64,000 bases of DNA from an uncultured archaeon (GTDB lineage Archaea > Asgardarchaeota > Lokiarchaeia > Sigyniarchaeales > SOKP01): positions 648,242-712,241 of the forward strand of contig CAZALK010000001.1 of NCBI GenBank assembly GCA_964486045.1. Direction: 5' to 3'. Position 1 is the first letter of the stretch. The number at the start of each line of letters is the position of its first letter. Shown in pieces: positions 4,290 through 64,000 of this stretch. Both the position numbers and the translations under genes were made by a program. Under the pieces are notes generated by a model. That model was not told the DNA's origin, did not search any database, and was given only the letters and a program-made list of their open reading frames with translations.

Positions 4290-4871
4290 ATGCCAATTAT
4301 TGAATATAACGGGAAAAAACCCGAGATAAGTTCAAATTCTTACGTGAGCCCCCAAAGCACAATAATTGGGGATGTAAAGATAAATGATAACGTGATCATT
4401 TGGCCAGGATCAATAATCCGAGCAGAAAACTCTCCAATTGTAATTGGTGAATATTCAACGATTTTTGATGGAGTAATGATGCTTACACGATCTCAGAGAA
4501 GTTCTATTAATATTGGCAGATACTGTATAATTGAGTCCGGTGTGGCTTTACTAGGTTGTTTTATGGAAGACTATGTTCAGATAAAGGAAGCAACTCTTAT
4601 CTTTGAAGAAGCATCAATAGGTGAGGGTGTAATTATTTTGAAAAAAAGCCAAGTTCCCCCTGGATTGATTATTCCCGCTCGTACTGTCATGAGAGGGAAT
4701 CCTGTAGAATCAATTAGAGAACAAACCAGAAACGATATATTAAAACAGAAGGAACGCGCAGAAAACTATTCTCAATTATTTGTTAAAATAATAAATCAAC
4801 TCCCAAATGCTCAGGGTTATCTATTATCTTTACCTGATTTCTTAAAATTACTAATAAAAAAGGATGAATAA
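4290..4871 (+). CDS. Gamma-carbonic-anhydrase-like left-handed beta-helix protein, no His ligands
   Basis: Hexapeptide repeats, IIGDV.I...V.IWPG.IIR and GNP. ATG at 4290 preferred over GTG at 4233. Confidence 0.85.
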   Translation: MPIIEYNGKKPEISSNSYVSPQSTIIGDVKINDNVIIWPGSIIRAENSPIVIGEYSTIFDGVMMLTRSQRSSINIGRYCIIESGVALLGCFMEDYVQIKEATLIFEEASIGEGVIILKKSQVPPGLIIPARTVMRGNPVESIREQTRNDILKQKERAENYSQLFVKIINQLPNAQGYLLSLPDFLKLLIKKDE

Positions 4872-4897
4872 AAAAAAAATAAAATATGAGTTTATAG

Positions 4898-6759: not shown

Positions 6760-7191
6760 CTAAGATATTTTTTCACATTCACTATTAATAACTTTCAATG
6801 TTGTGTTAAAATCTTGCCACCAATCTTGACCTTGTTGAGCAACTAACATTGAATCGACCTTTTTAGAGTCCAAACACCTAATTTCTTCCTTATGAGCTTT
6901 AATCTTCGTTTTCCAAATTTCAGAAAAAATCCCTTGTATATTGATTTTAACTTTTTTAATTAATTCTTCATAAGAAACTGATACGTCTTCAATTTTTTGT
7001 AGTTTTTGAAGTTGCTCAAATTTCACTTTTTCTTTAGCCCTGTTCAAATCTCCACAACTTATTTTGATCGAAAATGACTCCTCTTTGCCCCATTTACAGA
7101 ATTTTTGAATTTCACATAATGAACAATAAATCTCAAAACCAATTGTATAATCTTCTAACCCAACAATAGAGTAATTTAAAGTTTTAGGCAT
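6760..7191 (-). CDS. Hypothetical protein with a Cys cluster (CxxC-x5-C..C)
   Basis: YCSLCEIQKFC..SC. Plausible ORF with upstream AT-rich promoter. Confidence 0.7.
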   Translation of the reverse strand: MPKTLNYSIVGLEDYTIGFEIYCSLCEIQKFCKWGKEESFSIKISCGDLNRAKEKVKFEQLQKLQKIEDVSVSYEELIKKVKINIQGIFSEIWKTKIKAHKEEIRCLDSKKVDSMLVAQQGQDWWQDFNTTLKVINSECEKIS

Positions 7192-7338
7192 GATTCTCTC
7201 TTTTTATTTAAATAAAAATATAATCTTATCTCTAATATAATTTAGGTCAAAAAATTTTTTAAACACTATTTATTAAATTATTCGTTAAAGAACGTTTTTT
7301 TAAACTTAACCTTTAAGAGTTCTTAAATTACCCGGTGA

Positions 7339-7412
7339 GGGAGAGTGGCTTAGCCTGGTATAGCGCACGGCTGATAACCGTGAGGTCGGGGGTTCGAAGC
7401 CCCCCTTTCCCA
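7339..7412 (+). tRNA. tRNA-Ile(GAT)
   Basis: Acceptor GGGAGAG/CTTTCCC, anticodon arm CACGG-CTGATAA-CCGTG, T arm GGGGG-TTCGAAG-CCCCC. CCA not encoded. Confidence 0.97.
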
Positions 7413-7499
7413 CTTATTAGATAGACATGTGGTAGACATACTCACCATATTTTTTTATCTTTGTCTAATACAGGAAGTTAAAAAAAATCCTAGAGAGTT

Positions 7500-8402
7500 C
7501 TAAATTTTTAAGTCTTGAGTATATTTTAGATAATTTCTGAAAAACCAACCTACAAAAATCATATCATCTTCTTTCAGATTAGCTCTTTCTAAGGCATTAT
7601 AATAATATTTTCGGATAATAAAAGGAATATCAAACATAGGATAATTATTCTTATACAAAATATAATTCATAACTAATCTCGATATTCTTCCATTTCCATC
7701 TGAGAAAGGATGGATTGAAACAAACCTAAAATGCATTAAACATGCTAATAATACAGGATCCATTGATTGTTTTTTTTCATTATACCATTTAAAGAGAAGA
7801 TCCAATAATTCTTCACATACAAATCCTCCTAATGGAGGAACATAATTACTTCCAGAGATAAAAGCTTTATCTTGTCTTATCATACCGGCAAAATTATTTC
7901 TGTTAGGATGCAAACTAAATAGTTTTCCATGCCATTCTAAAGTTTTTTCTAATGATAATCCAGAATCCTCTAGATTCTTTGTAAATTCATTGTATAAATC
8001 CCAATGTAGTTTAGCTTCGACAATATCGTTTGTAGATTTGTTAATTGGAACATCAGGCTCATCAACAACTAGCGCAACTTCTCTATGTGTTAATGTTGAG
8101 CCTTCAATTTTATTGGTATGATAAGTGAATCTAATACCAAAGCTCTTCAAGAATTCTAATTTTCGATATTTTGGTAATTTATCTAATTTGGAACTATATT
8201 TTTCTTTAATTTCTTCTATGGATTGATTCCATCTCTTATTTAAAATTTCCTCAATAAATTTTTCTTTAATATCCTCTATGTCTTCAGGAATCTCTTTTCC
8301 AATTTCCTTATATAAATTCCTTATATTTCTATTTTCCCGATAAGAATATTGTAGTGAATAATACTCTTTTCCTTCAATTTTTCTTTTTATCACACTTACC
8401 AT
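7500..8402 (-). CDS. Fic family AMPylase (class II, autoinhibited) with N-terminal beta-sheet DNA-binding-like domain
   Basis: Catalytic motif HPFSDGNGRISR. TNKIEG inhibitory motif lies N-terminal to it. Confidence 0.93.
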   Translation of the reverse strand: MVSVIKRKIEGKEYYSLQYSYRENRNIRNLYKEIGKEIPEDIEDIKEKFIEEILNKRWNQSIEEIKEKYSSKLDKLPKYRKLEFLKSFGIRFTYHTNKIEGSTLTHREVALVVDEPDVPINKSTNDIVEAKLHWDLYNEFTKNLEDSGLSLEKTLEWHGKLFSLHPNRNNFAGMIRQDKAFISGSNYVPPLGGFVCEELLDLLFKWYNEKKQSMDPVLLACLMHFRFVSIHPFSDGNGRISRLVMNYILYKNNYPMFDIPFIIRKYYYNALERANLKEDDMIFVGWFFRNYLKYTQDLKI

Positions 8403-8580
8403 AATTACATATTACAAATACAATTATATAAATCTACTTACTTTTTTCCAAAATGTAATTGTAATTACAACTACTCTCTTATTGGTTAAATATAAATAAT
8501 CGAATTTGTAATTGTAATTATAAATACTTTTCAATCTTTTTTATATCTTTTCTCCGATTTGTAGTTGTAAATATTTCTAT
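8402..8580. repeat. Four 20-bp imperfect palindromes at an exact 53-bp period upstream of fic
   Basis: 8402 taattacatattacaaatac; 8455 gtaattgtaattacaactac; 8508 gtaattgtaattataaatac; 8561 gtagttgtaaatatttctat. Confidence 0.75.
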
Positions 8581-8913
8581 GATGCATACTAAAGAGAAGG
8601 TGCATCCATATCTCGCATATTTTTAAATAAGAAAAAGTATCTTCACTTGAGAATGGACAACTTATTCCTCTATTTTAGAGTAATCTTGATTCATCTCATT
8701 AATGTTGTACATCTCTGTATTTTTGAAATCTTGAGAAATTCATTTTTTTATGTCAGAAGTTTTCGACGAGTTAAAGATTTGTTTACTATAAATGTAAAAA
8801 AATGATATATCATGTCTATCGCATGTCGAATTGTAGGTTGAAATCCCCCTTTCCCATTAGTTAATTTCAATAATCTTCATTTACATGATTAATTATCAAA
8901 CCCAATTATAAAT

Positions 8914-9513
8914 GTGAAAATGAAAATTATTATTATCTCTGGGACTCCTGGTTGTGGTAAAACCTCTGTAACCAAAGTATTGTCTAAGTTAATAGATGCT
9001 AAGATCATTTTCTTAAACGAATTGGCAGTTTCAGAAGATTTTTCTTTCGAATATGATAAAGAAAGGAAAACTTACATAGTAGATTTTAAAATATTTCTTC
9101 CCTATATCATAAACAAAATCAAAGTAATAAAAATAGATGATCCTAAATTCTTAATAATAGAAAGTCATTTCTCAGACATCATTCCTAAAAAATACATGGA
9201 TTACGTTTTTATTTTGAGGTGTGACCCAGATGAATTGACTAAACGGTTGAAGGAAAAGAACTTTGATATAAATAAAATAACAGAAAATGTGCAAGCAGAA
9301 ATTTTGGGAAATTGTGTGAATTACTTAGTTCAAAAAAAAATAAAAAAACCTATTTATGAAATTAATACTACGAATCTAAACATTGAATCAGTAGCTAAAA
9401 CCATAAATAATATAATATTTGGAAAAAAAGATGTGGAAAAATATTATTTGGGTAAAATTGATTGGTTAGAAAAGTTATTTCAAGAAGACCGGCTAGTCGA
9501 ATTTTTCGATTAG
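8914..9513 (+). CDS. Adenylate kinase 6 / Fap7 (hCINAP) family
   Basis: GTPGCGKT, IIESH, LRC, KI.EN..AEI.G, G.IDW. Confidence 0.92.
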   Translation: MKMKIIIISGTPGCGKTSVTKVLSKLIDAKIIFLNELAVSEDFSFEYDKERKTYIVDFKIFLPYIINKIKVIKIDDPKFLIIESHFSDIIPKKYMDYVFILRCDPDELTKRLKEKNFDINKITENVQAEILGNCVNYLVQKKIKKPIYEINTTNLNIESVAKTINNIIFGKKDVEKYYLGKIDWLEKLFQEDRLVEFFD

Positions 9514-50700: not shown

Positions 50701-52250
50701 TAAATAGCATAATTGATGAAAAGAAAAATATAATCATTAATACACAAGAAATTATAGAAAAGTATCAAGAGGAACAAAATTCATTACAAAATGATATTGA
50801 TGCTCTCGCTTTAAAAAAAGATAATTTTTGGGAAATGACAAGTAGTATTCAGAAACAGATAGGAGATAGAAATAAAGAACTAGAAGAAGTCATGGATCGA
50901 TTGAGAGCACTTGAAAATGTTATGAGGACAATTAACACAATTGAAGACATAACAAATGAAAATGTTGAAGCAAAAGATAATATTGAAATTAGTCTAAAAC
51001 AAATAAATGAGTTTAATTCTCAAGTAGATGAAATACAAACTAAAGTAGATCAAACCCAAAAGATAGTAGATTCACTCAGAAATGAAAAAATTAAGGAATT
51101 AGAATCACAAAAGAGTGCCCAAAAAGAATTAAATAAAATTAATAAGGATTTACAAAAACACCAAAAAAAATTAAATGAGTTAAATAAAAATAAGGAAAGA
51201 GAGCAAAAAATTGTTGAATTGAATCAAGAGATAGTAGAGACTGAAAAGCAAATACGATCGGTATTAAAAGAATTGGAATCTTTTAGAGGTGAGTTGGATT
51301 CAGAAAGTGTGAAAAAAGATGCCAAACAAGATGAAATTGATAGATTAGCCAAAGAAAAGGATAATTCTTGGAAGAAACAGAAACAACATCAAAAAATGAT
51401 TTCTGATTTTAAGTCAGATCTTTCAATGGAAAATTCTAAGAAGAACAATTTTGAATCCAAAAAAATCATCTGCGCTGATCAAATAGAAACATACTTCCAA
51501 AGATCTAAGGAATATGGTTCTTTACCACCTGTTACTGAAGACCTCTCGGAAGGTGAATTGCAATCAGATATTGTTGAAGCAACAAATAATAAAAAAGTCC
51601 TTGAACCTGTTAATTTAAAGGCAATTGAACAATATGATGCAGTAAAGGAAAGATTTGATGAAATTGACATGCGTAGGCAAACAATTCAGAGAGAAAGGAA
51701 ATCAATTCTAGATGCTATAGATAAAATTGAGCTGGAAAAAACGCGTACATTCATGAAATCTTATCATGAAATAAATCGTGAATTTTCACGGGTATTTCAG
51801 AAATTATCTCCAGGAGGTTCAGCAAAAATGATACTAGATCGTCCCGATAAACCGTTTGAAGGAGGAATTAGTATAGAAGCGAGACCAAGAGGTAAAAAGA
51901 TTAGTTCACTTGAAATTTTAAGCGGTGGTGAAAAAACGCTCGTGGCTCTCTCATTTATCTTTGCCGTCCAGGAATTCTATCCCGCGCCTTTTTACGTTTT
52001 AGATGAGATCGATGCGGCTCTCGATGGTCCTAATGTACACAGAACGTCTGTGGTCATACAGGAATTTTCAAAACAAGCGCAATTCTTGGTTATTAGTCAT
52101 AGAGAGGAGAATATCGTAAATTCTGATAGAATTTATGGCGTCACTATGCAACAATCAGGCGTAACAGATATCTTTAGTGTCGATTTGGAGGAAGAAGCAA
52201 AACGGTTATTAGATCTTGAAGATATCGAGCCTACCATTGCAGAAAACTAA
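47796..52250 (+). CDS. smc: SMC ATPase, unusually long and with no recognisable hinge
   Basis: FKSF, GPNGAGKSNIIDA, LQG, PVN.KAI..Y, LSGGEK, LDEIDAALD, ISH, and long coiled coils. Confidence 0.92.
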   Translation: MTYIKKISMTGFKSFGDRTVTIKLSSGFTCIVGPNGAGKSNIIDALCFALGRLSKKTMRAKSLEDLIFAGSRGKNPSQRASVTMFFDNSDNIFPGGTDTFEITRTIKRGGGGGYKMNGTKSTRQQILNALAAANIDPDGSNQFVLQGKIVELTHMNAERRRFFIEDLIGLQKYDEMKDSTLKELEKAERDLGQFEAIFNEVSSQLKKVEKEKNDALLWKEFDEQINSLNSQLIALKILKLRDEEDDLEKKIESSLKITEELKEKINRQESLLTQESLVMDNIQTTINEKEKEKEEITEVITQLKTKISSNQTTSNIAEQSIAKVHKEIENLTKMQMKLEQGQTIDILMEGVVYDINECENKIEEAKKEIEKRQQTQSELDSKIKNNEEEKSLFNSDISKIRQDISSNNAQIKVLKDNIKKNEDKKVKLEVELNKLKKDAESIDEAIDDAKKVEKVIRSQINNLKTQLVEENQKQKDLEKQINNFQEAKNQLNTKLINLQSNLSSLNTEINMNNGSIQDLNTKKTDIETKIQELSKGKDTEVVVKELLSQNEKVNKEINEQKGKLKKKNSNYKKNEQALELLKVKKESFGSELNDNKGKIDTLSTEVKIFTKEYTKLEREKNSLDLQVNTLNKNILNIEDELEKFSRKKDNVQGRLEDLSKEKENLLKKVESSEMEYEKNATDITGILQILNMLTQNINISVESIKGNIQQSNAEAIETSAEDFKKYVLDIVDIMKTVEELGSETEQVTETSMMLKSIMKTLKLFTDNADGTIFQLIEKVKESADVEIQSSTMTFDNFVQDLMEILENVYISLRKLTMSKSQELYKQLEEISENINSQTGDFNLIEKRLTEINIQTKFYTENASSINRRLDEINKRNLELNERISKSNQEINVRTGVINERKKEKENIEQEIQKLEGIKETFWDDISKIQDNIEKKQLDLENSRDKLHELHGIQNLFENIVEIEENIQKLNSIIDEKKNIIINTQEIIEKYQEEQNSLQNDIDALALKKDNFWEMTSSIQKQIGDRNKELEEVMDRLRALENVMRTINTIEDITNENVEAKDNIEISLKQINEFNSQVDEIQTKVDQTQKIVDSLRNEKIKELESQKSAQKELNKINKDLQKHQKKLNELNKNKEREQKIVELNQEIVETEKQIRSVLKELESFRGELDSESVKKDAKQDEIDRLAKEKDNSWKKQKQHQKMISDFKSDLSMENSKKNNFESKKIICADQIETYFQRSKEYGSLPPVTEDLSEGELQSDIVEATNNKKVLEPVNLKAIEQYDAVKERFDEIDMRRQTIQRERKSILDAIDKIELEKTRTFMKSYHEINREFSRVFQKLSPGGSAKMILDRPDKPFEGGISIEARPRGKKISSLEILSGGEKTLVALSFIFAVQEFYPAPFYVLDEIDAALDGPNVHRTSVVIQEFSKQAQFLVISHREENIVNSDRIYGVTMQQSGVTDIFSVDLEEEAKRLLDLEDIEPTIAEN

Positions 52251-52316: not shown

Positions 52317-55300
52317 TTAGATTCCTTTTCTGCATTTCCTACAAGGTTCAATGTTTTGGTTAACTAACCGTTTAAAGTATTTGGGGGTTATAGTAAACTG
52401 ATGTTGCCTCTGACATGTAATCTGTACTTTTTTAGTGTTGTTTACGTATTCAGAGAGGAGTTTATATTTCAAAAATTCGATCATCTGGACCAATTCTTTT
52501 TTAGCGGTTTGTAGTCGTTCTTTATTCGGATGGTTTTCATCTGCACAGATTTTACACCATCTTCCTTGGTATACAGCACCGGGGGTGGTGTTCCATTTGT
52601 GGTTTTTGTTACATTTTATAGTGATAGGTTTGAACCGTCCACTATACTGGGTAACAAGCTCCCCTCCCCTTTTCCTAACAAAGTGTTGAAATTTTTCAGC
52701 AAATACATCCCTATTGCATTTAGGGCACAGAATCTCAATTTTTTTAAAGTCCTTTTTTAACCAATACGGTGATTTTTCAAATTTATGTCCTTTCTGACAC
52801 CTGTATGTTATTAGGGTTTTAGCATTAACGTACTCACTAATTAAATCACAATTAAACATTTTCCCTATTTTTTGAAAAAACACTGTTGTCCCTTTCATAT
52901 TTCCCGCACATTCTGAACACCAGTTACCCATGTATACAGAATTTGGGGTGGTTGTCCACTGATGTCCTTTTTCACACATGAGAGTTACTTCTTTTCTCGC
53001 TGAGAAATAGGGTGTTATTAAAGCTCCGTCTTTCTTTTTGACATATGTTCTAAATTTTTCAGCATATTCATTTTCATGAATAATGAATTCTTTATAATCA
53101 TATCTAGGGATGTTTTTAAGAGTTTTTCCACTTATCCTTTCATATTCTTTTATAATATATTCTTGCATTTTATCGTAAGGTACAATTTCATCATCAGGAA
53201 TTTGAAGTAAAACTACATTGTTTTCTCCACATTTTTTTAATTTTAGAGCATCCTCTCTCATAATCTTTTGGAGTTCTTCATCTGTCATGCCAAAAGCTTT
53301 CTTCCGATGTTGTATTCCCTGATATTCAAATGCTAATCTTAAGTCTTTGCTATTTCCATCGAGTTCCATTTGATTACCGTTCTCATTAGTTAGCCACTCA
53401 GGATAACTTTTTGGAAAGGGTCTTTTAAAAAGCTTTTCAAAAAACCTTCTACAAATTGTCTCACTAATATATATATGACAATCCGGGCACCATGTATTAG
53501 AATAAACCACGCTATTATATGTAGTAAAAAAGTGATGTCCTTCAGCGCATTCAAGGTGTAGTTTCGACTTGGCATTTTTTAAGACTTTTGTATGACATTT
53601 CCCACCCTTTTTTTCTGCAATTTTCATTACAGTATCTATTGAAACATGTTTCTGTGTTCGGACATATTGCTGATATTCCTCTTTAGTTAAAATCCTATTT
53701 AATTGATTTCGAGTGGAGGTATCGCTTAACAAAAGCCATTCTTGTATATCGTATGCGTTATATTTCCCTGGATTCTCCAAAATTTGTGTTTTAATCACTT
53801 TATTCAAGATGTCATTATCTCTAATTTTTATTATTAGATCAGAAAAATTCAGGAGTACTTTTATCTGATCTTTAATAGAGTTAGTTTTATCATCTGTAGA
53901 AAAATTCACTAATTGTGTTTGTTTCACCTTTACAAAGTTTATAAAAGTCTTGGTTGGACGGAAATTTTTTATCCAATTACCAGATTTGTTAAATTCTGTA
54001 ATAAATTGTTTTATTAACTGATTTTCATGTATATAATGTAAAAATTCTTCAAATAGATCATACTCTTTCACATACGATTGTGAATATTGTTTGTTGAGGT
54101 AAGTAACTAACATATTTTTTTTTATATATTCATAATAATCCCAGCCCCATTTTACGTAGTTTTTAGTATGCTTTTCAAATGCATCTCCAAAAATTCCGAT
54201 TAATTGATTAATATGAAGTTTTTTCAAAATTGAAGCTATAATTTTTATATCTTTGTCAGTAAGGTCTTTTTTTCGTATTATTTGGTTCAATTGTGATTTA
54301 GACTCTTCACTTAATTCTTCTATAGATGTTAGCTTATGTCTTAATAATTCCTTCCAGTCTTTACTGACCAAGGATAGATTTTCATTTTTTCCTCTTTTTT
54401 CAGTTTCTTTAAGTTTCTTTAATTTTTGAGTTAGATGCGTGGTGAATCTTAGTTTTTCAGCAAGAATTTCATGTTTAAACCACCTAATTTTATTATTATA
54501 AAATGTTTGAAAAGCGCTCAGGTTTTTAAACATTTCTTCTTGGATATTAGTCATTTTTTCAAGCTTTTTACTTAAATTCTCAATTATTTCAATGTCGTCA
54601 TTTGTAGGGTTTGCTTTATTCAATAATTTAATTAATTTCTCGTATAACAGTCTATAGTAACGATATTTCTGAATTATATCTATCAATTCTTTTTTGTTTT
54701 CCCCTGAAATATCATCTTCATTAGCTTGTTGAATCCAATTCTCTAGTAGAACTTCCCAGTTTTCTTTTGATTTTTCAATTTCTTTTTTCACCTTCTTCTT
54801 TTGAGCTAAATTCTTTTGTTTCTCCAACCATTTTAAAAATTCTTTGGTTTCTTTTTTAGCATAAAGGGGTCTTTTACCTGTGTCCTGACGGTATTTCTGT
54901 TGTAGCTCTTTTTTCATTTCTTTGTTTTTTTGACTTTTCTGGTTGCTTTTTTGACGCTGTTGAGTAATAATCTTGCTTGTTGATGTTGGTTTTTGTGGTT
55001 GTATTTCATTTTTTAGAAGTTTATCCTTTTTTTTATTAGATTTCTCACTGGGTATTTTTTTAACAACCTTTTTATTTTCAGAAGAAATTTTTTTTTCAGA
55101 TTTTTCCGCTGGTTTTTTTGCTTGCTTTTTAATAAGCTCCGATTCCCCAAATTCCTTAGGATCGGTAATTAGTTCTAGACTTATTACTCTCTTAGGTCTC
55201 TTTTTCTGGGATGATTTTTCAGACGTCTCCTTTTTATTTACAGATTCTTCAGATTTTTTTTGACTATTAGCAGTTTTCGATTCACCAAGCTCTCCGGGAT

Positions 55301-56702
55301 CAGTTGCTAACTCAAGATGCTTTACTTTTATTTTTATTTTTTTTGAGTTTTTCGTTGTTTTTTTTGTTTTCTTTTCCGATTTTTTAGGATGGTTTTGAGG
55401 TAATTTGTAGTCATATTTTGTATTAACTATATGACTATATTCATAATGTTTATAATCCCCAAGCTCCTCGGGATCTGTGATGACCTCAAGTTGCTTGATT
55501 TTCTCCGGTTTTTTTTTGGGAGTTTTTTGTGGTTTCTTTTTTTTTGTCTTCTTCTCTTGTTTTTGAGGTTTCTTATGAGAAAAAATATAGTCGTACTTTG
55601 TTCCAACTATATGACTATATTCATAATGTTTATAATCCCCAAGCTCCTCAGGATCAGTAATTAATTCTAGCTCTTTAGCCTTAATTCGCTTTTTTTTCTG
55701 TTCTCTCTTTTGGATTTGTTCAGGAACTAGCTCAGGTTCTTGTTTGGGAGACTGTTCAGATTCTTGCTCAGATATTAATTCAGGTTCTTGTTTAGGAGTC
55801 TGTTCAGATTCTGGGGATATTTCCCCTTGCTGTTGATCATACATTTTTTCAAGCAAATCTTCAAGAGGTATTAATTCTGGGTCTGGTTGATGAGGAACAG
55901 GCTCCCCATTATCAGGATTTATGAGCTCCAGTTCTTCAAGTTCTCTTTCAGCTTCTTGTTCGGGCTCATTTTCAGATTTTACCTCAGGAGTTTGAGCAAT
56001 TTCATTTTCTGCTGTTTGATCCGATTCGATCTCACGGTCTTCCTCTGTTTCATAATCTCTTTCTGGATAAGTTGGAATGCCCATTTCCTCTAAATCTCCA
56101 AACATTTCAGTAACTTTTTGGGGATCTGCAGGAGGCATAGGTTCACCATCGGGATAAACCAATTCCGGATCTTCTTCAGATTGTTCTGAATCTTGGTCAT
56201 GTTCGCTTTCAGATTCTTCCTCAGGTTCATGGTCAGTTTCTTGATCTGGTATTTGATCAGGTTCATTGTGAATCGTAATAGTAACAGTTCCAGAATGATT
56301 TGGGTTGAGATTTCCATCAGAGTCTGATCCTAGATCATCATTAGGTTTTTCTTCGTTTGGGTTGAAGCTCTCTTCCTCTGGAATCTCATCTGATTCATCT
56401 ACATTGGGATTAAAATCATCCTCATCTGGGATTTCATCTGACTCATCTACATTTGGATTAAAATCATCCTCATCCGGGATTTCATCTGACTCATCTACAT
56501 TTGGATTAAAATCATCCTCATCCGGGATTTCATCTGACTCATCTACATTGGGGTTGAAGGAATCTTCATCTAAGGTCTCATCGGATTTATCAGAAATCTT
56601 TCCTTCCTCAGCTTCATCAGGACTATCTCCACTTTTTAAGGAGTGAATAATTTCAGGTCTATCGGGTCCAATATCGGAATCTAAAAAATCTAGATCTGTC
56701 AA
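52317..56702 (-). CDS. Giant repeat protein with C-terminal Zn-ribbon repeats and PD-(D/E)XK/Vsr-like endonuclease
   Basis: Acidic tandem repeats and four LELITDP.E.G repeats. Five C..xH.(F/W)..C..C units flank SE..C..MELDG..LAFEYQG.QH. AGGTGA RBS before the TTG. Confidence 0.8.
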   Translation of the reverse strand: MTDLDFLDSDIGPDRPEIIHSLKSGDSPDEAEEGKISDKSDETLDEDSFNPNVDESDEIPDEDDFNPNVDESDEIPDEDDFNPNVDESDEIPDEDDFNPNVDESDEIPEEESFNPNEEKPNDDLGSDSDGNLNPNHSGTVTITIHNEPDQIPDQETDHEPEEESESEHDQDSEQSEEDPELVYPDGEPMPPADPQKVTEMFGDLEEMGIPTYPERDYETEEDREIESDQTAENEIAQTPEVKSENEPEQEAERELEELELINPDNGEPVPHQPDPELIPLEDLLEKMYDQQQGEISPESEQTPKQEPELISEQESEQSPKQEPELVPEQIQKREQKKKRIKAKELELITDPEELGDYKHYEYSHIVGTKYDYIFSHKKPQKQEKKTKKKKPQKTPKKKPEKIKQLEVITDPEELGDYKHYEYSHIVNTKYDYKLPQNHPKKSEKKTKKTTKNSKKIKIKVKHLELATDPGELGESKTANSQKKSEESVNKKETSEKSSQKKRPKRVISLELITDPKEFGESELIKKQAKKPAEKSEKKISSENKKVVKKIPSEKSNKKKDKLLKNEIQPQKPTSTSKIITQQRQKSNQKSQKNKEMKKELQQKYRQDTGKRPLYAKKETKEFLKWLEKQKNLAQKKKVKKEIEKSKENWEVLLENWIQQANEDDISGENKKELIDIIQKYRYYRLLYEKLIKLLNKANPTNDDIEIIENLSKKLEKMTNIQEEMFKNLSAFQTFYNNKIRWFKHEILAEKLRFTTHLTQKLKKLKETEKRGKNENLSLVSKDWKELLRHKLTSIEELSEESKSQLNQIIRKKDLTDKDIKIIASILKKLHINQLIGIFGDAFEKHTKNYVKWGWDYYEYIKKNMLVTYLNKQYSQSYVKEYDLFEEFLHYIHENQLIKQFITEFNKSGNWIKNFRPTKTFINFVKVKQTQLVNFSTDDKTNSIKDQIKVLLNFSDLIIKIRDNDILNKVIKTQILENPGKYNAYDIQEWLLLSDTSTRNQLNRILTKEEYQQYVRTQKHVSIDTVMKIAEKKGGKCHTKVLKNAKSKLHLECAEGHHFFTTYNSVVYSNTWCPDCHIYISETICRRFFEKLFKRPFPKSYPEWLTNENGNQMELDGNSKDLRLAFEYQGIQHRKKAFGMTDEELQKIMREDALKLKKCGENNVVLLQIPDDEIVPYDKMQEYIIKEYERISGKTLKNIPRYDYKEFIIHENEYAEKFRTYVKKKDGALITPYFSARKEVTLMCEKGHQWTTTPNSVYMGNWCSECAGNMKGTTVFFQKIGKMFNCDLISEYVNAKTLITYRCQKGHKFEKSPYWLKKDFKKIEILCPKCNRDVFAEKFQHFVRKRGGELVTQYSGRFKPITIKCNKNHKWNTTPGAVYQGRWCKICADENHPNKERLQTAKKELVQMIEFLKYKLLSEYVNNTKKVQITCQRQHQFTITPKYFKRLVNQNIEPCRKCRKGI
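55405..55665. repeat. Duplicated ~75-bp coding block at 180-bp spacing
   Basis: Encodes ITDPEELGDYKHYEYSHIV.TKYDY twice. Confidence 0.85.
56356..56571. repeat. 48-bp coding tandem repeat (~4.5 copies)
   Basis: Near-identical units at 56395, 56443 and 56491, with degenerate flanks. Encodes DESDEIPDEDDFNPNV. Confidence 0.95.
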
Positions 56703-56708
56703 AATTGA

Positions 56709-58709
56709 TCACCTGAATCGATTTGAATACTTATATTCAGGCGTTTTAACAACAAAAATTTCTTGATTACTTCCATTTATAATAAGCGCATAACGAGGAT
56801 TTTGGAGAATAAGGTACTCTTGAGTTTTTAGATTATTAGTAAATAGCTTGCTATCTAAATGGCTAAGGCTGAATAGTATTTTAAGGTTTGGTAAGCTTAA
56901 AGCACAACTAAATAACCGATGGGGGGTATTATCTGAAATGAAGAATGATAATCCTTTACTCCGAAACTCTCTTATTAAATTGTTAAATATTAATTCCAAT
57001 TGCTCTCGTGAGATAAAATCATCCGCATTAGGGTTTGTCGTGATTGGTAATTCTAATATTTGGTAGGCTTCTTCAATCACTATTATGTTTTGAAGTTTAC
57101 CTGCTTCCACATCAGGAATAAGGGTTTTGACCATTTGAAAAATCGCATTAGACAATAATCTTTTAACATAAATATCACACATGGATAAATCAATAAAAAT
57201 TGTTTTTCCATTTCTCCAATCATTAAACCATTTAGGGATATTGTTAATCTGTAATAATTCTAAGGTCTTCTTCAGAATAGGATCAGAGAGAAGGGAAGGA
57301 ATCCGATTTTGTAGAGCTCTTAGAATATAGGTCTGATATTTCTTATGATATGGGTGTTCTATGAAATATTTTTTCAACCCATTAAACAAAGTCTTTAATG
57401 ATCGTGGTAAAGATCCATTTACTTTTATGAAAGCTTTCATTACAACATACAATATCTTATCAGAAGGACTTCCAAGCCCAAGAGATGATGCCAAATACGT
57501 CGCAGTTTCTTGAAGTGACTTGTTTAAATATTCTCCTTCATAAAAATAACTTAAATGTAAATCTGAAGATCCATACTTAAGAATTTTATCGGTAGTATAG
57601 AATCCCTCTTGTTTACCTTTCCCCAGGTTCAAGATTAGAATCCCAATATCAGGAGCATTATTATAAAATTGATTGCAAATATGACCTAATAGATAAGTCT
57701 TTCCTGCACCCGTTTGACCTCCAATAAAAACACTATTTGCAAAATGAGTTGTCGGCAGAGATTTGATTATCTTAGTTTCTACTCCATTAACTACAATATT
57801 ACCAATTGAGATGGAATTCTTATCACTAATAGAGGAATAATTAATATTAACGAGAGGGGGACTATATGATTTTTGTAATGGTAAATCATCTGAGAAAGTG
57901 AAGTCAACCTCATCAGGGCTAATAAATGCCGGAACTCTCTCTTCAGGTAATTTGCCATAAATATAACAATAATAAGCGCCAGTATTTTGATTTTTATCAT
58001 TAATCCAAAAGACGTTAGAACTCATTATTTTTTCCCAAGTGTTAAGACGAGTTTTTTTAATGCAAGCACGCTCTCCTATTAAATTTCTTATACCCATAGT
58101 TAAATACTCCAATTTAGCCTCAAGTTGTACCGTCTTTAACTTATTATTATCAAGCTTATTATCTTGTATAATTCTAATAAAGATCTTGAGTTTATACATT
58201 TCAAATACAGAAACCTTGTCATATTTGTGAATATGAATTGAATCATCCTTTTGCCAGAATATATAGAATTGAAATACGTTAGTGTCCCGCATTTTAAATA
58301 ATTGGATAATCTTCTTGATGATATGAAATTTATCTCCCTTTAAAAATGGAATTCGAGGGAGAACTAGTTCATAAGTGGGGAATTCTTGTTTTAAAATAAA
58401 TAGACCAATTGGTAGAGCTGAGACTTCACCCGAAAGTCCAAGGAATCTTTCTTCTAAATTCATAAGGAACGAATACCCCCTTTTTAGGGCTTTTGATTCG
58501 GTTTCAGCATACATAATAAAGATGAATGAAAAGGTCTTGTTCAGTGTGAGTTCCAAACCATATACAGTTTGGTCTAGAAAAGGATCAAAAAGCCACGACA
58601 TGTCGATTTTAGCACCGTTGTGAGTTCTAGGGTTTACGAATTCTTGCGTTTCTAATTTAGTTGGGATTTGCGTAATTTTTACTCGTGCTTGCCAAAATTT
58701 TGTTTCCAT
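56709..58709 (-). CDS. HerA/VirB4/TrwB-like (FtsK-HerA superfamily) ATPase
   Basis: Walker A GQTGAGKT, Walker B IVIEEA, R-finger FRSKG. Start reassigned to ATG 58709, which has a GAGGGG RBS and avoids the overlap. Confidence 0.85.
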   Translation of the reverse strand: METKFWQARVKITQIPTKLETQEFVNPRTHNGAKIDMSWLFDPFLDQTVYGLELTLNKTFSFIFIMYAETESKALKRGYSFLMNLEERFLGLSGEVSALPIGLFILKQEFPTYELVLPRIPFLKGDKFHIIKKIIQLFKMRDTNVFQFYIFWQKDDSIHIHKYDKVSVFEMYKLKIFIRIIQDNKLDNNKLKTVQLEAKLEYLTMGIRNLIGERACIKKTRLNTWEKIMSSNVFWINDKNQNTGAYYCYIYGKLPEERVPAFISPDEVDFTFSDDLPLQKSYSPPLVNINYSSISDKNSISIGNIVVNGVETKIIKSLPTTHFANSVFIGGQTGAGKTYLLGHICNQFYNNAPDIGILILNLGKGKQEGFYTTDKILKYGSSDLHLSYFYEGEYLNKSLQETATYLASSLGLGSPSDKILYVVMKAFIKVNGSLPRSLKTLFNGLKKYFIEHPYHKKYQTYILRALQNRIPSLLSDPILKKTLELLQINNIPKWFNDWRNGKTIFIDLSMCDIYVKRLLSNAIFQMVKTLIPDVEAGKLQNIIVIEEAYQILELPITTNPNADDFISREQLELIFNNLIREFRSKGLSFFISDNTPHRLFSCALSLPNLKILFSLSHLDSKLFTNNLKTQEYLILQNPRYALIINGSNQEIFVVKTPEYKYSNRFR

Positions 58710-58722
58710 CAAATTTTCCCCT

Positions 58723-59484
58723 CTATTTGTTTGTATTGTAATATGAATGTCTTTCTTTTTCAGGATTATGTCTACGGCGTGAATATCTTTTAAAATTATT
58801 TCTATTTGATAGCTTTTCTGCAGCATATATATTTTTATAGAACAAATTACCAACGAAATGAAATCCGTACTTAAACACAAAATAAAATCCTGTAACTATT
58901 AAATATATAAGGAATTCATGAAACCCTTGTAAATAAAATACAGTAACACTTATAAACGTTAATAGAATTGATAATCCAATTAATAAAATCTGATACATTG
59001 AATGATTGAAATTATTTAGAAATGTTTTGGGAATAATTAAGAAATCCGTAAATGAGGGAGCCGCAGAAAGTGAAATAGAAATCATTATAAAAATAAAAAC
59101 AAAGAAAAATACTGGTTCTACTTGGGAATATAGAAGAGTTTCAAGTAAAAAGAAAAAAAGCCAAAATAAGATATAAAGCGGAGCTAACCCTATCAGAACT
59201 GCTTGTAAAAATGAAATTCTATGTGCTTGAACCTCTACTTCTCCATAGTATCCAAGCCTTCCTTCTTCCTTAAAATCTAATTTCTTAACAAAAGTTACAT
59301 TTTCTATAGGAGAACGAGTTATTATACACATAAGATAGTGGCATAATTCATGGATGACAATTCCTGCCACTGCTAAAACCTTAATAATGTCAGAAAATGG
59401 TGGAGGCACATATTTAAAAGCTAGATAAGAAAATATCACTGAAAATATCATAAACCCGATGATATATGGTATTTCTTCAAACAT
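58723..59484 (-). CDS. Membrane zinc metallopeptidase (M50/M50B-like)
   Basis: HELCH within a TM region, GLAPL and PS..D motifs, multi-TM. Confidence 0.8.
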   Translation of the reverse strand: MFEEIPYIIGFMIFSVIFSYLAFKYVPPPFSDIIKVLAVAGIVIHELCHYLMCIITRSPIENVTFVKKLDFKEEGRLGYYGEVEVQAHRISFLQAVLIGLAPLYILFWLFFFLLETLLYSQVEPVFFFVFIFIMISISLSAAPSFTDFLIIPKTFLNNFNHSMYQILLIGLSILLTFISVTVFYLQGFHEFLIYLIVTGFYFVFKYGFHFVGNLFYKNIYAAEKLSNRNNFKRYSRRRHNPEKERHSYYNTNK

Positions 59485-60516
59485 TTCAAATCATTTTTTT
59501 GAAAATTATTATAGTTAAAAGAAAATACAACGTGAGTATATAAAGAAAAATTTAGAATTTTCTTTCTCTAAAAAAAACAAAATGACAATACAAAATTGGA
59601 ACAAAAATAATAATTATATTAAAAATTCTTTGAAAAAAAAATAAGGATTTGAGAAAATTTGATTCTAAGGGAATAATAAACTAAACTCTTAAAAGTATGG
59701 TTAGTATTTCATAATTTTATTTATATTCTGCATAATGCTGGATTATATTATTCCATAGAACTTTTAGGCATGTATAAATTTTCTTTAAAATTGCTCCTAT
59801 TTTATTCCTGATTTTATGCATGTGATATATAAATGAATTTTTAGTGTAATTCCAGTAGTTCTTATTGCTTTTATAGAGTAGTCGTAACTGTTTTAAATTT
59901 AATGAAGTTTTTGAAAAATAAATTTTTTTTTCATAAATAGAAGTCTCAAAACTTCCAATAAATTGATAAGGATCAGATTACATAAAATTAAGCCATATTT
60001 TGAGTTGTCCTTCTTAAACCTTGGATTAAACTTTGAGAATTTAAATATTTTTATTGACGATTTTTAAAAACCAGAGATATATCGCTTATTATCTTGGTAA
60101 TCCTAACCTTAATTGTCATATAAATGATGTATATTCTAAAAACCCGCGAAAGGATATTAATTCAAAAAGACTTATTGCAGAGATAATAAAAAATATTGAT
60201 AGCAGTGGTATTTATGCATTAATTTCAAGAATAAAAATGGATATAAATAGACCAATGGATGATATAATAAATCCACAATACTAGAATATCGTGAAACCAT
60301 ATTATTTTAAATTGATGTATAAACTATTTGAAACACCATCTAGCCCATAAACATAATATCGGAATAGAATATTATAATTATCCTTATTGTGAATTTACCA
60401 CGAAACACAAGAGTAGTATCCCCCGTTATATTAGATTAAATCACCCCAATGATAAGGATTTTAAAATTCAAATTTATAAATTTCAATAATCATATATTAG
60501 ATAGAGGTGAATAATT

Positions 60517-61692
60517 ATGGCTAAGAAGGGTAAGAAAGCAGAAAAAATTATTAAAGAATTTAACGAAAACATTGAATCTTTTACTGAAAATCTCACCATT
60601 CTAATGGAAAAAATTACTACCTATTTAGACACTACCAATAAATTAACTCTACTCGGTAGTCTATCGAACCACTCTCAAGAAACTCAAAACTTTCATAACG
60701 ATCTTCAAAAAAACGGTCTTGGGATCTTTCTCTGGTTTGAAAATGAATATCCAAATATATCAATGGTTTTTGATCAGTGTGGATTTTTACCCACCGTGGT
60801 AAAAATAAAGGATGTTAGGAAATGCATTGATGAGTATAACCAATTGATAAATCAAACTAACCAAAAATATAAAAATTTGATGAGATTAGAAACTCAAGAA
60901 TCACAAGAACTATTTAATAATACACATCTAGATCCTATCAAAAATCTCATTGTTAAATCTCATTTATGGCGAAAGATTGATGAAAATACAGTAATTTATA
61001 TAGATATATTCTTTAAAACTCTACCTGCTTTAACAATTTATATCGAATTGTTGTCAAAAGTAATAAGAATTGAATCAGCAAGACTTAAAGTATCAAAACG
61101 TAGAAAAGGAACAAAAAATGTATTTAAATCAACTGAACAACTGTTTAAGAGAATAAATAAGGAATTTTATAAAAAATGTCCCGAAAAAATTATAAAAGAT
61201 ATTCAAGAGCTGGGAGATTTTGGTAAAGAAATTACGGATAATTTAGATTATATTAAAGAACATAAAAGAGAAGAATTTTATAATTTGCTAGAGCTATCGA
61301 AGGATTTACACGAATTTCACATCGATTTAGTTAAATATGTATTACGTCTTTGGCACATCAATAAATATGGTAATAGGGATTATGTTAACAACTACAAAAT
61401 TAAACACCAATTTCCAAACATAAATTCAATCATTAATTTTTATATTAAACAACAGTTAATGCCCAATTTCCCAAATTTAAGCCGAATACTAATAGGGTTC
61501 TTCTTCCCCTTTGAAAAATATCGTCATATAGAATCTCATTCTGCCCCAAATTTTGAATTATCTGGTGATGAGAAATATATTTTTATTCCCCAAAAGGGAA
61601 AAAAAAGTAAGATAAAAGTAGATATAGGTGAATTTCAGACGCATATAAGAACTTATCAAAGTTTTATAGAAGCTATAGGTTTATATCGATAA
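60517..61692 (+). CDS. Helical protein with putative C-terminal HEPN domain
   Basis: YRHIESH (Rx4H) near the C-terminus. GAGGTGA RBS. Confidence 0.55.
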   Translation: MAKKGKKAEKIIKEFNENIESFTENLTILMEKITTYLDTTNKLTLLGSLSNHSQETQNFHNDLQKNGLGIFLWFENEYPNISMVFDQCGFLPTVVKIKDVRKCIDEYNQLINQTNQKYKNLMRLETQESQELFNNTHLDPIKNLIVKSHLWRKIDENTVIYIDIFFKTLPALTIYIELLSKVIRIESARLKVSKRRKGTKNVFKSTEQLFKRINKEFYKKCPEKIIKDIQELGDFGKEITDNLDYIKEHKREEFYNLLELSKDLHEFHIDLVKYVLRLWHINKYGNRDYVNNYKIKHQFPNINSIINFYIKQQLMPNFPNLSRILIGFFFPFEKYRHIESHSAPNFELSGDEKYIFIPQKGKKSKIKVDIGEFQTHIRTYQSFIEAIGLYR

Positions 61693-61694
61693 TC

Positions 61695-62237
61695 TTATGC
61701 CTTCTTTTTAATAACTAATGTGTGGTAATCTCCTTTTATATTTTCTGAAAATTCATTTGAAGTGTAGTTAAACCCTCTTATTTCACCATCTCCAGGATCA
61801 AAAAATAATAATTCAGTATCATTATATTCTACTGCTGTCCTTATATGAGCAACTTCCGCGTCTTGCCATCCAATAGGTTTGGGGTTATTCTTCTCCATTA
61901 TGGGGACTTTTATCATTTGTTTAAATGAAACTAAAACGGGTGTTTGGTTATCAATATTAGATTTAATATAGTCCACAACTTCTCTAAGTGAATGATTAAA
62001 ATCACCGATCCCTTTAAAAATAAATTCAAAATCTTTTAAAATTTTTGCTAATTCGGGACTAAGTTCTTTAAAGCCTAATGGTATGCTTCTCGTTTGACAA
62101 AAATACAACAATTTCAGTTCATCATAATTACTTTCTCCATAATATTTAAGAGCATTTTCTATGTTAACAGGTATACAACCTGCTGATGAATGCATTTGAA
62201 TTATTTTTAGATATTTTTCAAAATCGATTTTTGGCAT
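61695..62237 (-). CDS. Papain-fold C39-like cysteine peptidase
   Basis: Q..x..GC, PVLV, AH, FDP triad arrangement. Confidence 0.7.
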   Translation of the reverse strand: MPKIDFEKYLKIIQMHSSAGCIPVNIENALKYYGESNYDELKLLYFCQTRSIPLGFKELSPELAKILKDFEFIFKGIGDFNHSLREVVDYIKSNIDNQTPVLVSFKQMIKVPIMEKNNPKPIGWQDAEVAHIRTAVEYNDTELLFFDPGDGEIRGFNYTSNEFSENIKGDYHTLVIKKKA

Positions 62238-62352
62238 AAATGATTATTGGATAATTTTGTATAAAAAATTTGTCTTTTCTTTTTACTACCTGGCATTCCT
62301 CTAAACATTTTGGTTAAACTCGTTAGATTTAGATGATTCTACAATTTTTTAA

Positions 62353-62655
62353 TTATTCTGTTATTTCAAATGTTAATTTCATAGATTCCAGATATTCTTT
62401 TAACGGTTTTTTAACCTTAGGGAATTTATCACTTAAATAAATATAATCTTCTCGCTGTAAATCTACATAAGTACGTATTAAATCTTTCACAATTGCGTCT
62501 CTAATAAACTTCTTTGGTTTTATCTCAACAGTTTTGCAATAAATGTTTACAGCTTGAGCAAATTCTTGGGATAGTCGTAATGTGAATTTTGTACTAACAA
62601 TCTTCTTTCTAACAATAACTACCTTCTTAACCATATGTTTCAGTTTCAACTTCAT
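62353..62655 (-). CDS. Ribbon-helix-helix protein
   Basis: KFTLRLS strand followed by two helices (FIRDAI). Confidence 0.6.
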   Translation of the reverse strand: MKLKLKHMVKKVVIVRKKIVSTKFTLRLSQEFAQAVNIYCKTVEIKPKKFIRDAIVKDLIRTYVDLQREDYIYLSDKFPKVKKPLKEYLESMKLTFEITE

Positions 62656-62789
62656 AATGAATTAATCCTAAACTTTTCTTTTTATTTTAAAATTCAATAG
62701 AAATCTCAATAAAACTTATTTAGGAGTCTTTCCACTATTTATTTGAAGAAAAAAATCGAGGAATTAATTATTAATAAGTGAATTAACGA

Positions 62790-64000
62790 ATGAAGTTACA
62801 TCAAAATAAAAACAATTTGACATATAGTTATAATACAATTGATATTAAAGAAGCACTTACAAAATTGTCAAACCTTTTAATACTATTTCCATATCATCCT
62901 AGGAAATCTAAAATAGAGAATATAGGATGGTTAACTCCTCAAAAATTATTTCGTAAAAGTGATATCCCAAAAAGACCCTTTTGTGGCATTATTGAAACAT
63001 GTCATAGAAAAGGTTTTCCAGTGTTTAGAGATTGGCTTAATTATATTGAAAATAAAAGTCGAGATAAAAAAAACGTCATAGAAATTAGGAAAAAATTGGT
63101 AAATCATTTAAATGAGTGTATAAAAAATATTGGGTATCAAGAAGAAAATTCAAGAATAATTCTCAATAATCAATTTAAGGAGTTGTATATATGGATTAAA
63201 ATAATGTATGATAAAATCAACTATCTTAAGAATAAAGGGTGTTGGAGTTCAGAATTCTTACAGCAATTAAGAAGAAGAAAAGAAATTTGGGATGCTTACA
63301 AGCAATATCGCAAGATCAAAGCCAAGAAGAGGAGAAAAAAAGTTGATCAATATAATCAAAAAATGGAAGAATTAACGAAAGATGATAAAATTGATGCCTA
63401 TCTTAATAAATTATTCCCAATGAGTTATGACCAATATAAGATAGAAAGAAAACTTCCCAAAAGTTCTTCAGAAAAGGAAATACTAAGATGTAAATTAGTA
63501 AGAACTGAGTATAATTCATATGTTGCAAATTCTCTCTATGATGAGAAGCTTCCCTTAGAAATAATATTTACAAAAATTTTTCATTTCAAACATAACTTAA
63601 AAGAATTTAATATCTTAACTCCACAAGAATTTGATAATTTTATTAATGAAATATTACAATTAATGGGCTATGATTGGGTATCTTGTATTAATGGCGAATT
63701 AATGCTTATAGGATATAGTATAGAAGAAAAAGAGGAAAAAGAAGTCTTTAGATATTTAAAGAAATATCGAAAAGTAATCGAGAATCTTGAAAAAGCCAAA
63801 CAACACATATTGGAAGCAGACTGGAATAGTGTCCCTTTATATTGTTGTAAGGCTATTGAGCACTTTTATAAAAATTTATTAGGACAAAAAAAAGAATTTG
63901 AAAAATACTCAATATCTAGATTAACTCAAAAATTAATAGAGGAAAAGAATATAAATTCTCTCTTTAAAAATTCATCTATTGATATTAACGACGGAATAAA
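62790..64000 (+). CDS. AbiJ-like/HEPN-type protein, 3' truncated by window edge (absent from ORF track)
   Basis: Manual translation is open from ATG 62790 to the window end (>400 aa). The distal part VIENLEKAKQHILEADWNSVPLYCCKAIEHFYK resembles a HEPN N-terminal helix pair. Confidence 0.6.
   Translation, partial: MKLHQNKNNLTYSYNTIDIKEALTKLSNLLILFPYHPRKSKIENIGWLTPQKLFRKSDIPKRPFCGIIETCHRKGFPVFRDWLNYIENKSRDKKNVIEIRKKLVNHLNECIKNIGYQEENSRIILNNQFKELYIWIKIMYDKINYLKNKGCWSSEFLQQLRRRKEIWDAYKQYRKIKAKKRRKKVDQYNQKMEELTKDDKIDAYLNKLFPMSYDQYKIERKLPKSSSEKEILRCKLVRTEYNSYVANSLYDEKLPLEIIFTKIFHFKHNLKEFNILTPQEFDNFINEILQLMGYDWVSCINGELMLIGYSIEEKEEKEVFRYLKKYRKVIENLEKAKQHILEADWNSVPLYCCKAIEHFYKNLLGQKKEFEKYSISRLTQKLIEEKNINSLFKNSSIDINDGI

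Follow-up and report, generated by a model that had tools for sequence, protein, structure and literature searches.

The 64-kb window analysed here (64,000 nucleotides of contig CAZALK010000001.1, assembly GCA_964486045.1) belongs to the genome of an uncultured Asgard archaeon, called G000 below; the window's contig is referred to as C1, and C12, C14, C28, C31 and C41 are other contigs of the same genome. The G+C content of the window is 26-34%. On its minus strand lie three coupled genes, for a membrane protein (pep), an ATPase and a giant protein of 1461 aa, which we propose to be the core of a homing element that replaces the ends of host genes, here the end of smc. A preliminary description, made from the letters alone, had noted three co-oriented, tightly coupled genes with 13- and 6-bp gaps and ribosome-binding sites, and our check of the open reading frames (ORFs) of the window confirmed this. 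The pep stop codon is separated from the ATPase ATG by 13 nt, and the ATPase stop from the TTG start of the giant gene by 6 nt, with Shine-Dalgarno-like boxes GAGGGG and AGGTGA in front of the ATPase and giant genes, respectively. The ATPase ORF is taken from this ATG (56709-58709, 666 aa), the TTG start of the ORF list (58880) being located inside pep. A Rag/Gtr-like GTPase, an Orc1/Cdc6 paralogue and smc are encoded just upstream in the window. The giant gene is convergent on smc, and ends 66 bp from the smc stop. No ORF fits between the two stops (52317 and 52250), and consequently no immunity-type gene follows the predicted nuclease part of the giant gene, as had already been noticed. The features are the following:

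59485..59623, minus strand: upstream boundary of the repeated unit; the similarity between the C1, C28 and C41 copies starts here, and the flanks beyond are unrelated
58723..59484, minus strand: pep, polytopic membrane protein of 253 aa, predicted M50B-like zinc metallopeptidase (HELCH, PSFTD, profiles of homologues)
57840..58709, minus strand: ATPase N-terminal domain, aa 1-290, VirB4-N-domain-like (model of the domain alone, TrwK match)
56709..57839, minus strand: ATPase C-terminal P-loop domain, aa 291-666, FtsK-HerA/VirB4 class (model, fold matches, Walker A/B)
55713..56702, minus strand: giant protein aa 1-330, acidic, disordered, with 16-aa tandem repeats (composition, repeat scan)
54894..55712, minus strand: giant protein aa 331-603, lysine-rich linker with four LE[LV][IA]TDPxE[LF]G motifs (motif scan)
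54828..54893, minus strand: family signature motif YRQDTGKRPLYAKKETKEFLKW, giant protein aa 604-625 (alignment of relatives)
53613..54827, minus strand: helical middle region of the giant protein, aa 626-1030 (71 representative relatives)
52317..53612, minus strand: predicted nuclease head of the giant protein, aa 1031-1461 (Zn ribbons, DUF559/Vsr-like core, smc-adjacent homologues)
52020..52250, plus strand: last 76 codons of the current smc, a probable replacement gene end linked to the element (identity drop, orphan boundary)

The three proteins and their family

The pep protein has about 5-6 hydrophobic segments, and carries the motifs HELCH (residues 45-49) and PSFTD (residues 143-147). 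In an alignment of 24 homologues, H45, E46 and H49, as well as P143-S144-x-x-D147, were invariant or nearly so. Pfam profile PF13398 (Peptidase_M50B) matched 17 of these 24 homologues, with a best E-value of 6e-7, and PF02163 (Peptidase_M50) matched 10 of them; the window's own protein remained below threshold in the Pfam search. With an HExxH in a membrane segment, a later Asp ligand and a profile match reached through its homologues, pep is predicted to be an M50B-like intramembrane zinc peptidase whose ligands are intact, and the M50-like HExxH membrane protease first proposed for it is well supported by the invariant ligands and the M50B matches. All 128 homologues retrieved were from Asgard archaea. 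The promoter region of pep contains TTTATATA, some 60-75 nt 5′ of the ATG.

For the ATPase, the full model had a pLDDT of 86. Residues 290-666 matched the folds of DndH-C (Z 30.1), VirB4 (4ag6, Z 27.2), HerA (Z 27.2) and TrwB (Z 23.8), scores that are effectively tied and that place this domain in the DndH/VirB4/HerA/TrwB class (Z 24-30). The Walker A sequence GxxGxGKT is invariant, and Walker B and a conserved R583 are present. The presence of an N-terminal extension was confirmed, with a length of about 290 aa. When it was modelled alone (pLDDT 77), its best match among 48,161 PDB representatives was the N-domain of TrwK/VirB4 (rmsd 4.3 over 219 residues, colinear), with a Z of 10.1, modestly above background, and Foldseek also ranked TrwK chains highest, with probabilities of 0.85-0.96. 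Because the N-domain matches VirB4 and has no HAS barrel, the models indicate a two-domain VirB4-like build rather than a HerA-like one; no NurA, SIR2 or DUF4297 partner, as found with HerA, is present in the window either. The FtsK-HerA superfamily and the extension of ∼300 aa given in the preliminary description were therefore correct, but a HerA build was not recovered.

By sequence profiles the ATPase belongs to no named family. Pfam gave a weak DUF87 match (2.3e-5) and no VirB4, CagE, TraC or AAA_10 match, and NCBIfam returned only noise at the level of Walker A. PADLOC reported mad8 over the P-loop domain (3e-13), and a match to HerA as well. No partner of type IV secretion (VirB3, VirB6, pilin, coupling protein or relaxase) was found nearby, the neighbours in the window being smc and a variable region. 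At other ATPase loci, where the flanking ORFs were compared against the three families of the unit, only the peptidase and the giant protein recurred beside the ATPase. Relatives of about 940 aa carry a fused N-terminal domain with 5-6 transmembrane segments that is not pep-like: a hidden Markov model of pep did not match it, and a Rosetta-stone fusion of peptidase and ATPase was rejected for this reason. The ATPase family is membrane-anchored in two different ways, since its members have either a pep partner or this fused domain.

The giant protein is charge-segregated and modular, and the layout first read from its translation was found again, with acidic repeats, a K-rich linker with LELITDP repeats, a helical region, Zn ribbons and no signal peptide. 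No transmembrane segment and no known secretion domain were detected in it. Its gene contains tandem repeats of a 48-nt period (3.5 copies, 96% identity, 56386-56552), and an acidic N-terminus is common to its full-length relatives, with a D+E fraction of 0.3-0.4 in the first 300 aa. The acidic repeats of the window protein use DDFNPNVDESDEIPDE units, and those of the C14 giant (L101:4664-8929, minus strand), in its first 170 aa, are built on DDPFDEYPDEDP units. DPF motifs, to which the C14 repeats may be compared, are adaptor-binding motifs in eukaryotic endocytosis. The LE[LV][IA]TDPxE[LF]G motif was rejected as a family feature, as it occurred in 2 of 47 long relatives, close ones only. The signature Y.QETG[KR]RPIY..KETKGF..W, for its part, is kept in about 22 of these 47 and in the ATPase-linked giants of other loci. 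Pfam gave nothing convincing on the N-terminal 1030 aa, and a search of the Atlas for the middle region returned no usable match.

All cysteines of the protein, 19 in number and with five CxxC, are found after residue 1000. The head starts with one treble-clef Zn ribbon, followed by a DUF559/Vsr-like core (ELDG...EYQGIQH...D..K, with the invariant columns E...D...E-x-x-G-x-Q-H...D-x-x-K) and four more Zn-ribbon modules. Matches to Pfam were weak (DUF4379 and Jiv90). The ribbon array matched PHROG 559 (1e-35) and 681 (8e-24), both annotated as endonuclease, and the language-model look-alikes of the head in the Atlas were viral clusters that combine DUF4379 with DUF559/DUF723/CapR (0.94); a tblastn of the core against phage records yielded two marginal matches. 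We infer that the head is a DUF559/Vsr-like nuclease of the PD-(D/E)xK type.

A search with aa 597-1030 of the giant protein against 1.8 billion representatives retrieved 71 relatives, many of which carry the signature motif. Among 48 long relatives, the head was LAGLIDADG_3 in 16 cases, GIY-YIG in 2 and DUF4379 in 2, the others having HTH arrays or a TFIIB repeat. The ATPase-linked giants of loci L068, L069 and L090 and of C14 end in LAGLIDADG. The C31 giant is 98% identical to that of the window over aa 597-870, and then continues with a TFIIB-like segment and two HNH-like domains, which makes a clean recombination breakpoint between the two at about aa 870. These comparisons show that the C-terminal head is interchangeable, and drawn from families of homing endonucleases or site-specific DNA binders. 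A polymorphic C-terminus behind a kept N-terminal and middle motif had been predicted in the preliminary description, and this is what we observed, the signature being kept and the heads swapped. No small gene recurs after the giants of other loci, and no immunity-type gene follows them.

Eight copies of the ATPase gene are present in G000. Those of C28 and C41 are 98% and 85% identical to the window's, and the block that they share with C1, consisting of pep, the ATPase gene and the start of the giant gene, is at least 3.2 kb long (94.6% and 88.7% nucleotide identity) and starts in the pep promoter. The five further copies have 31-39% identity. Outside G000, the pep-ATPase-giant order was found in at least 5 loci of other metagenome-assembled genomes (MAGs; L067, L068, L069, L078 and L094, ATPase identity 29-75%), and gene pairs in 8 further loci (pep-ATPase in 4, ATPase-giant in 4), so that the unit first described in the window is syntenic elsewhere. 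The ATPase family matched in 12 of 24 genomes of the genus and, in a set of 251 Asgard genomes, in 23 of the 54 of the same family, 1 of the 5 of the sister family and none of the 192 in 27 other families. Every relative found bore the taxonomic label Promethearchaeota/Asgard. We conclude that pep, the ATPase gene and the giant gene form the conserved core of an element that is present in multiple copies and, in the Asgard genomes sampled, is restricted to essentially one Loki-type (Promethearchaeota) family. A virus origin was rejected, as no relative of the ATPase was found among 2.9 million IMG/VR contigs, and neither the ATPase nor pep had a match in PHROG.

Probable replacement of the smc gene end

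Replacement of host gene ends by homing elements has been described for the WHO elements of Torulaspora and Lachancea yeasts, in which an endonuclease gene lies just downstream of an essential host gene (Coughlan et al. 2020, PMC7282813; Osborne et al. 2026, bioRxiv 10.64898/2026.08.13.744650). Insertion of a WHO element replaces the 3′ end of the host gene, which remains intact, and strands the old end downstream; nucleases and gene ends are both diverse, and the nucleases are intein-derived LAGLIDADG proteins with a zinc finger (PMC7282813; bioRxiv 10.64898/2026.08.13.744650). The smc gene of G000 is full-length (1484 aa, compared with TIGR02168/9). A search of 41 genomes of the genus, in which the C-terminal 499 aa of Smc served as query, detected additional copies covering no more than the final ∼41-76 residues in G004, G018, G008, G012, G046 and G000. 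These orphan tails are on the same contig as the full-length smc, 6-17 kb downstream of it, in G004, G018, G008 and G012, the last being partial and divergent, and on another contig in G046. Homologues of the head stand at smc in G018, G008, G004 and G044, as convergent genes of 462-822 aa, 71-79% identical to the window head. These free-standing nucleases share part of the middle region of the giant protein, from about aa 651 or aa 883 onwards. The N-terminal ∼650 aa (acidic repeats, basic linker and signature motif), which are present in the ATPase-linked giants, are missing from them, and no ATPase or peptidase gene is found nearby.

The orphan tails of G004, G018, G008 and G000 (on C28) all start at the same base, after ..GATGG, at the codons PNVHR behind the Walker-B/D-loop. 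Immediately before each of them lies a common element end, some 130 nt long (L065:8556-8672, that is G000 C28:17055-17171; L059:14886-15015; L060:12413-12501; L061:18969-19112), which is conserved in the four genomes although the rest of the islands differs; within G000, it is found on C28 only. On their 3′ side, the orphans lead into the ribosome-binding site and the gene that stand behind smc in empty-site genomes; at the occupied loci, the current smc tails are followed instead by the nuclease gene. The element end may carry an outward promoter that keeps the former post-smc genes expressed. It also provides an in-frame ATG in G018 and G004 and a TTG in G008, the orphan being an open frame of 77-85 codons.

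When a tree was built from the 600 nt that precede the tail, G000 paired with G013, G008 with G021 and G018 with G041. In the tree of the tails, it was the orphans, not the current tails, that paired with those relatives, with supports of 97/82, 100/99 and 98/95, the current tails being placed elsewhere. The current tail of G000 is 78.4% identical to that of its closest relative, G013, the value for the 600 nt in front of it being 88.0% (Fisher p 0.0014), and the C28 orphan is 86.5% identical to the G013 tail.

In the empty-site genomes G013 and G002, smc is followed by genes whose counterparts on C28 stand in unchanged order immediately behind the orphan. The complete order on C28 is g154, g313, 3.5 kb of island interior, the element end, the orphan tail, four post-smc genes, a truncated methyltransferase gene and a second triad, an order that could have arisen by inversion or by recombination between triad copies, or that may reflect a co-assembled strain. 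Of this gene, for a DNA methyltransferase of the beta class, only the 3′-terminal 101 codons are left (C28:24674-24976), and they adjoin the second triad on its promoter side. G013 has the complete gene (278 aa, DPPY motif), and no intact copy was found elsewhere in G000; since the fragment has no intact partner in the genome, a WHO-like replacement was rejected and we consider it a truncation.

A second case of gene-end duplication was found on C14. There, the LAGLIDADG giant gene overlaps by 4 nt the end of a convergent gene for a 563-aa FAD-dependent (G3P-dehydrogenase-like) protein, whose last 50 residues recur 12.3 kb away, in the same orientation and with 46% identity. The repeated end lies beyond the giant gene, the ATPase gene and three other genes; in this case the motor arm is inside the inserted block. 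A generic scan for orphan gene ends in 8 regions of G000 (C41 copy left out) was positive only for C14.

Proposed homing, possible export and the alternatives

Homing-type heads, the lack of an immunity gene and the smc footprint led us to prefer a selfish homing element over toxin export or defence. We think it fairly probable that the unit is a WHO-like element, replacing gene ends and equipped with a VirB4-like motor arm whose role is putative. Cleavage would be site-specific, and homing would proceed by gene conversion. The nuclease would cut element-free smc alleles near the Walker-B/D-loop codons (..DEIDAALDG/PNVHR..), around GATGGTCCTAATGT, and repair from an element-bearing copy would import the element together with a cut-resistant replacement tail, so that smc would stay whole while the old end is stranded. 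Recombination between copies would swap heads, and thereby retarget the element. As for the other two proteins, the ATPase, docked on the M50B-like protein or, in relatives, through the fused membrane domain, would act on the N-terminal module of the giant protein; the motor might then move the nuclease, possibly with DNA, across the membrane, and give it access to cells with empty sites.

The likeness to WHO elements lies in a nuclease gene placed directly downstream of a full-length gene, here smc, and in a displaced native 3′ end stranded beyond the element. The differences are that the head in the window is of the Zn-ribbon and DUF559-like type (LAGLIDADG, GIY-YIG or HNH in other copies), that the element is hosted by an archaeon and has smc among its targets, and that the nuclease is fused to an N-terminal module of ∼650 aa and accompanied by a membrane peptidase and a VirB4-like ATPase, parts that have no counterpart in WHO elements. 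Because the nucleases are unrelated, the Asgard element is an analogue of WHO, and not a member of that family.

To our knowledge, homing with replacement of gene ends has been described only in yeasts (the WHO elements) and in fungal mitochondria, and we know of no homing, secretion or defence system that combines a nuclease, a conserved module, a VirB4-like membrane-anchored ATPase and a peptidase. Searches of the available literature did not yield a description of the pep-ATPase-giant triad, which had been taken as undescribed at the outset. In these Asgard archaea, the gene-end strategy would rewrite the tail of smc, an essential chromosome-organising gene, which calls for caution with phylogenies built on the 3′ ends of such genes. 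Whether or not the motor transfers anything, the family is a source of putative site-specific nucleases with known natural targets, and a marker of recombination and gene flow in Asgard genomes.

Several observations weigh against a homing element of this kind. When the head was compared with the sequences of the PDB, both as a single query and as a profile, no relevant match was obtained, hence the nuclease fold is not established by structure; it is read from motifs, PHROG names and language-model look-alikes, and cleavage is predicted. The endonuclease domain of the preliminary description is in the same position, backed by the PHROG names and the conserved columns but matched in sequence by no solved structure. 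The orphan tail of G000 is on C28 (17169-17396), not on C1, and no stranded smc tail was found when it was sought in positions 59401-64000 of the window and on C1. Given a MAG contamination of 7.8%, C28 and C41 could be strain variants. Positions 59485-64000 have no DNA counterpart in the close relatives G013, G044 or G002 that would define the far boundary of the insertion. Approximately unbiased (AU) tests on the 231-nt tail do not significantly reject a placement of the current tails with their vertical relatives (p 0.36, 0.41 and 0.066), which is why a separate history of the current smc tails is suggested and not proven, the structural evidence being the stronger part. The smc islands of G018, G008 and G004 carry the nuclease without ATPase or peptidase, which means that the motor arm is not needed for homing as such. 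Finally, the scan for orphan ends was largely negative in 47 foreign ATPase loci, with flanks of at most 10 kb.

For the motor arm, the closest known machines are VirB4/TrwK, the ATPases of type IV secretion, and the archaeal DNA-import systems Ced/Ted. All have a VirB4-like N-domain and a P-loop C-domain of the FtsK/HerA class, and a polytopic membrane partner or fusion echoes the VirB3-VirB4 fusions. Unlike VirB4/TrwK, the Asgard ATPase has no VirB4/TraC/CagE profile and none of the usual partners nearby, and stands beside an M50B-like peptidase. The VirB4-like N-domain and the fused polytopic membrane domain of relatives strengthen the case for export or DNA translocation. Even so, the idea that the ATPase, seated on the M50B-like protein, moves the giant nuclease across the membrane with or without DNA is more speculative than homing, and we hold it as a tentative one. 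Should protein or DNA be moved from cell to cell by the motor, Asgard archaea would have their first known transfer apparatus, which would explain how a homing element spreads without sex. Should it export the nuclease, this would solve the problem of every prokaryotic homing element, namely to reach cells with empty sites, and the recoded gene end would be the equivalent of an immunity gene.

The furthest extension of this idea is a self-spreading element, in which the ATPase and the M50B-like protein form a minimal translocon that sends the giant nuclease into neighbouring Asgard cells, to cut an unprotected target there. The disordered, charge-segregated N-terminus of the giant would serve to thread it, and element DNA might be piloted along with it; the cut in the recipient, in smc for example, would force copying of the element, and the recoded gene end would be the producer's only 'immunity'. 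We regard this scenario as doubtful. If true, conjugation-like export, polymorphic effectors and homing would be united in one element, and the archaea nearest to eukaryotes would have a horizontal transfer and gene drive of a new kind.

Polymorphic toxins can be associated with FtsK-like export ATPases, the LXG toxins of type VII secretion being an example. On this model, the ATPase and peptidase would secrete the giant protein, its C-terminal nuclease would kill competitors, and the recoded smc tail would protect the producer. As with LXG toxins, a conserved N-terminal part precedes swappable C-terminal nucleases and a P-loop motor is linked; in addition, the ATPase family is membrane-linked and VirB4-like, EccC, a component of ESX/T7SS, was among the fold matches, and the unit is multi-copy and diversifying. 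However, the giant protein has no WXG/LXG domain, no signal peptide and no known secretion domain, and no immunity gene follows it here or in other loci. Moreover, its heads (LAGLIDADG, GIY-YIG, HNH, HTH array, TFIIB) are typical of homing enzymes and DNA binders, not of toxins, and the footprints of gene-end replacement point to an action on the element's own host genome lineage. Toxin export is unlikely in our view. The export, translocation or defence module of the preliminary description keeps, at this point, its polymorphic C-terminus and its motor, now VirB4-like, but the homing-type heads, the missing immunity gene and the homing footprint at smc speak against its being that kind of effector system.

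One may also suppose that the triad is a resident, non-mobile cellular machine, such as a membrane-tethered DNA-processing or chromosome motor, to which a separate smc-homing nuclease was fused by recombination. Such a nuclease does exist alone in four relatives, and the identity of the giant protein to the smc nucleases, 42-67% over the helical part and abruptly higher, 71-79%, over the head, fits a recent graft. This is nevertheless hard to reconcile with near-identical triads in unrelated flanks within G000, with a patchy family (43% of the family's genomes), with the other homing heads borne by other copies, and with the C14 copy, located inside a 12.3-kb insertion that is marked by an orphan gene end. 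We consider a resident machine quite improbable.

An anti-virus or anti-plasmid defence of the HerA-plus-nuclease type, in which the ATPase would assemble with the nuclease and activate it upon infection, is very unlikely: the C-domain does match HerA of the SIR2-HerA and DUF4297-HerA complexes and DndH (Z 24-30), with a nuclease partner encoded adjacent as in SIR2-HerA/Nezha, DUF4297-HerA and DndFGH, PADLOC gave mad8 and HerA, and the adjoining 60.5-64 kb region is variable between genomes and was HEPN-rich in the sequence-only first reading, but the N-domain is VirB4-like instead of a HAS barrel, the partner is a membrane protein and no SIR2, DUF4297 or Dnd gene is present, the heads are of homing type and stand beside replaced host gene ends, the unit shows multi-copy mobile behaviour, and up to 8 copies per genome is unusual for a single defence system. 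The IMG/VR and PHROG negatives were counted as neutral on this point.

Other copies and neighbouring regions

Beyond the triad, positions 59485-64000 of the window contain a 391-aa ORF, a C39-like peptidase at 61695-62237 and other ORFs. This region is variable, and is possibly cargo or a separate island.

The position of the protein accompanying the ATPase is not constant. In one subfamily of the ATPase, on C12 (37970-39979, ORF 6969-8978 of the locus) and in L017, L020, L082, L085 and L087, a protein of 560-690 aa precedes the ATPase gene rather than following it. The C12 protein has an N-terminus of GIY-YIG type, as read from its motifs, then KINQERAKDPEWREKMT repeats and an acidic tail. 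A giant protein of 1709 aa, with acidic repeats and a DUF4379-type head, is encoded without an adjacent ATPase gene at L099:210-5339 (G000 C1:291709-296838), the nearest ATPase copy being 30 kb away.

In L086, a locus of another MAG, the last 110 codons of the ATPase gene (3366-5345) are duplicated 2.7 kb downstream (8033-8359), with 95% identity. It looks as if an element had homed into the 3′ end of the ATPase gene of another element. Directly after the ATPase gene at C1:261679, a fragment of 30 codons (G000 C1:263694-263786) has 53-71% identity to the C-terminal tails of surface proteins that form a local family, and may be another stranded gene end.

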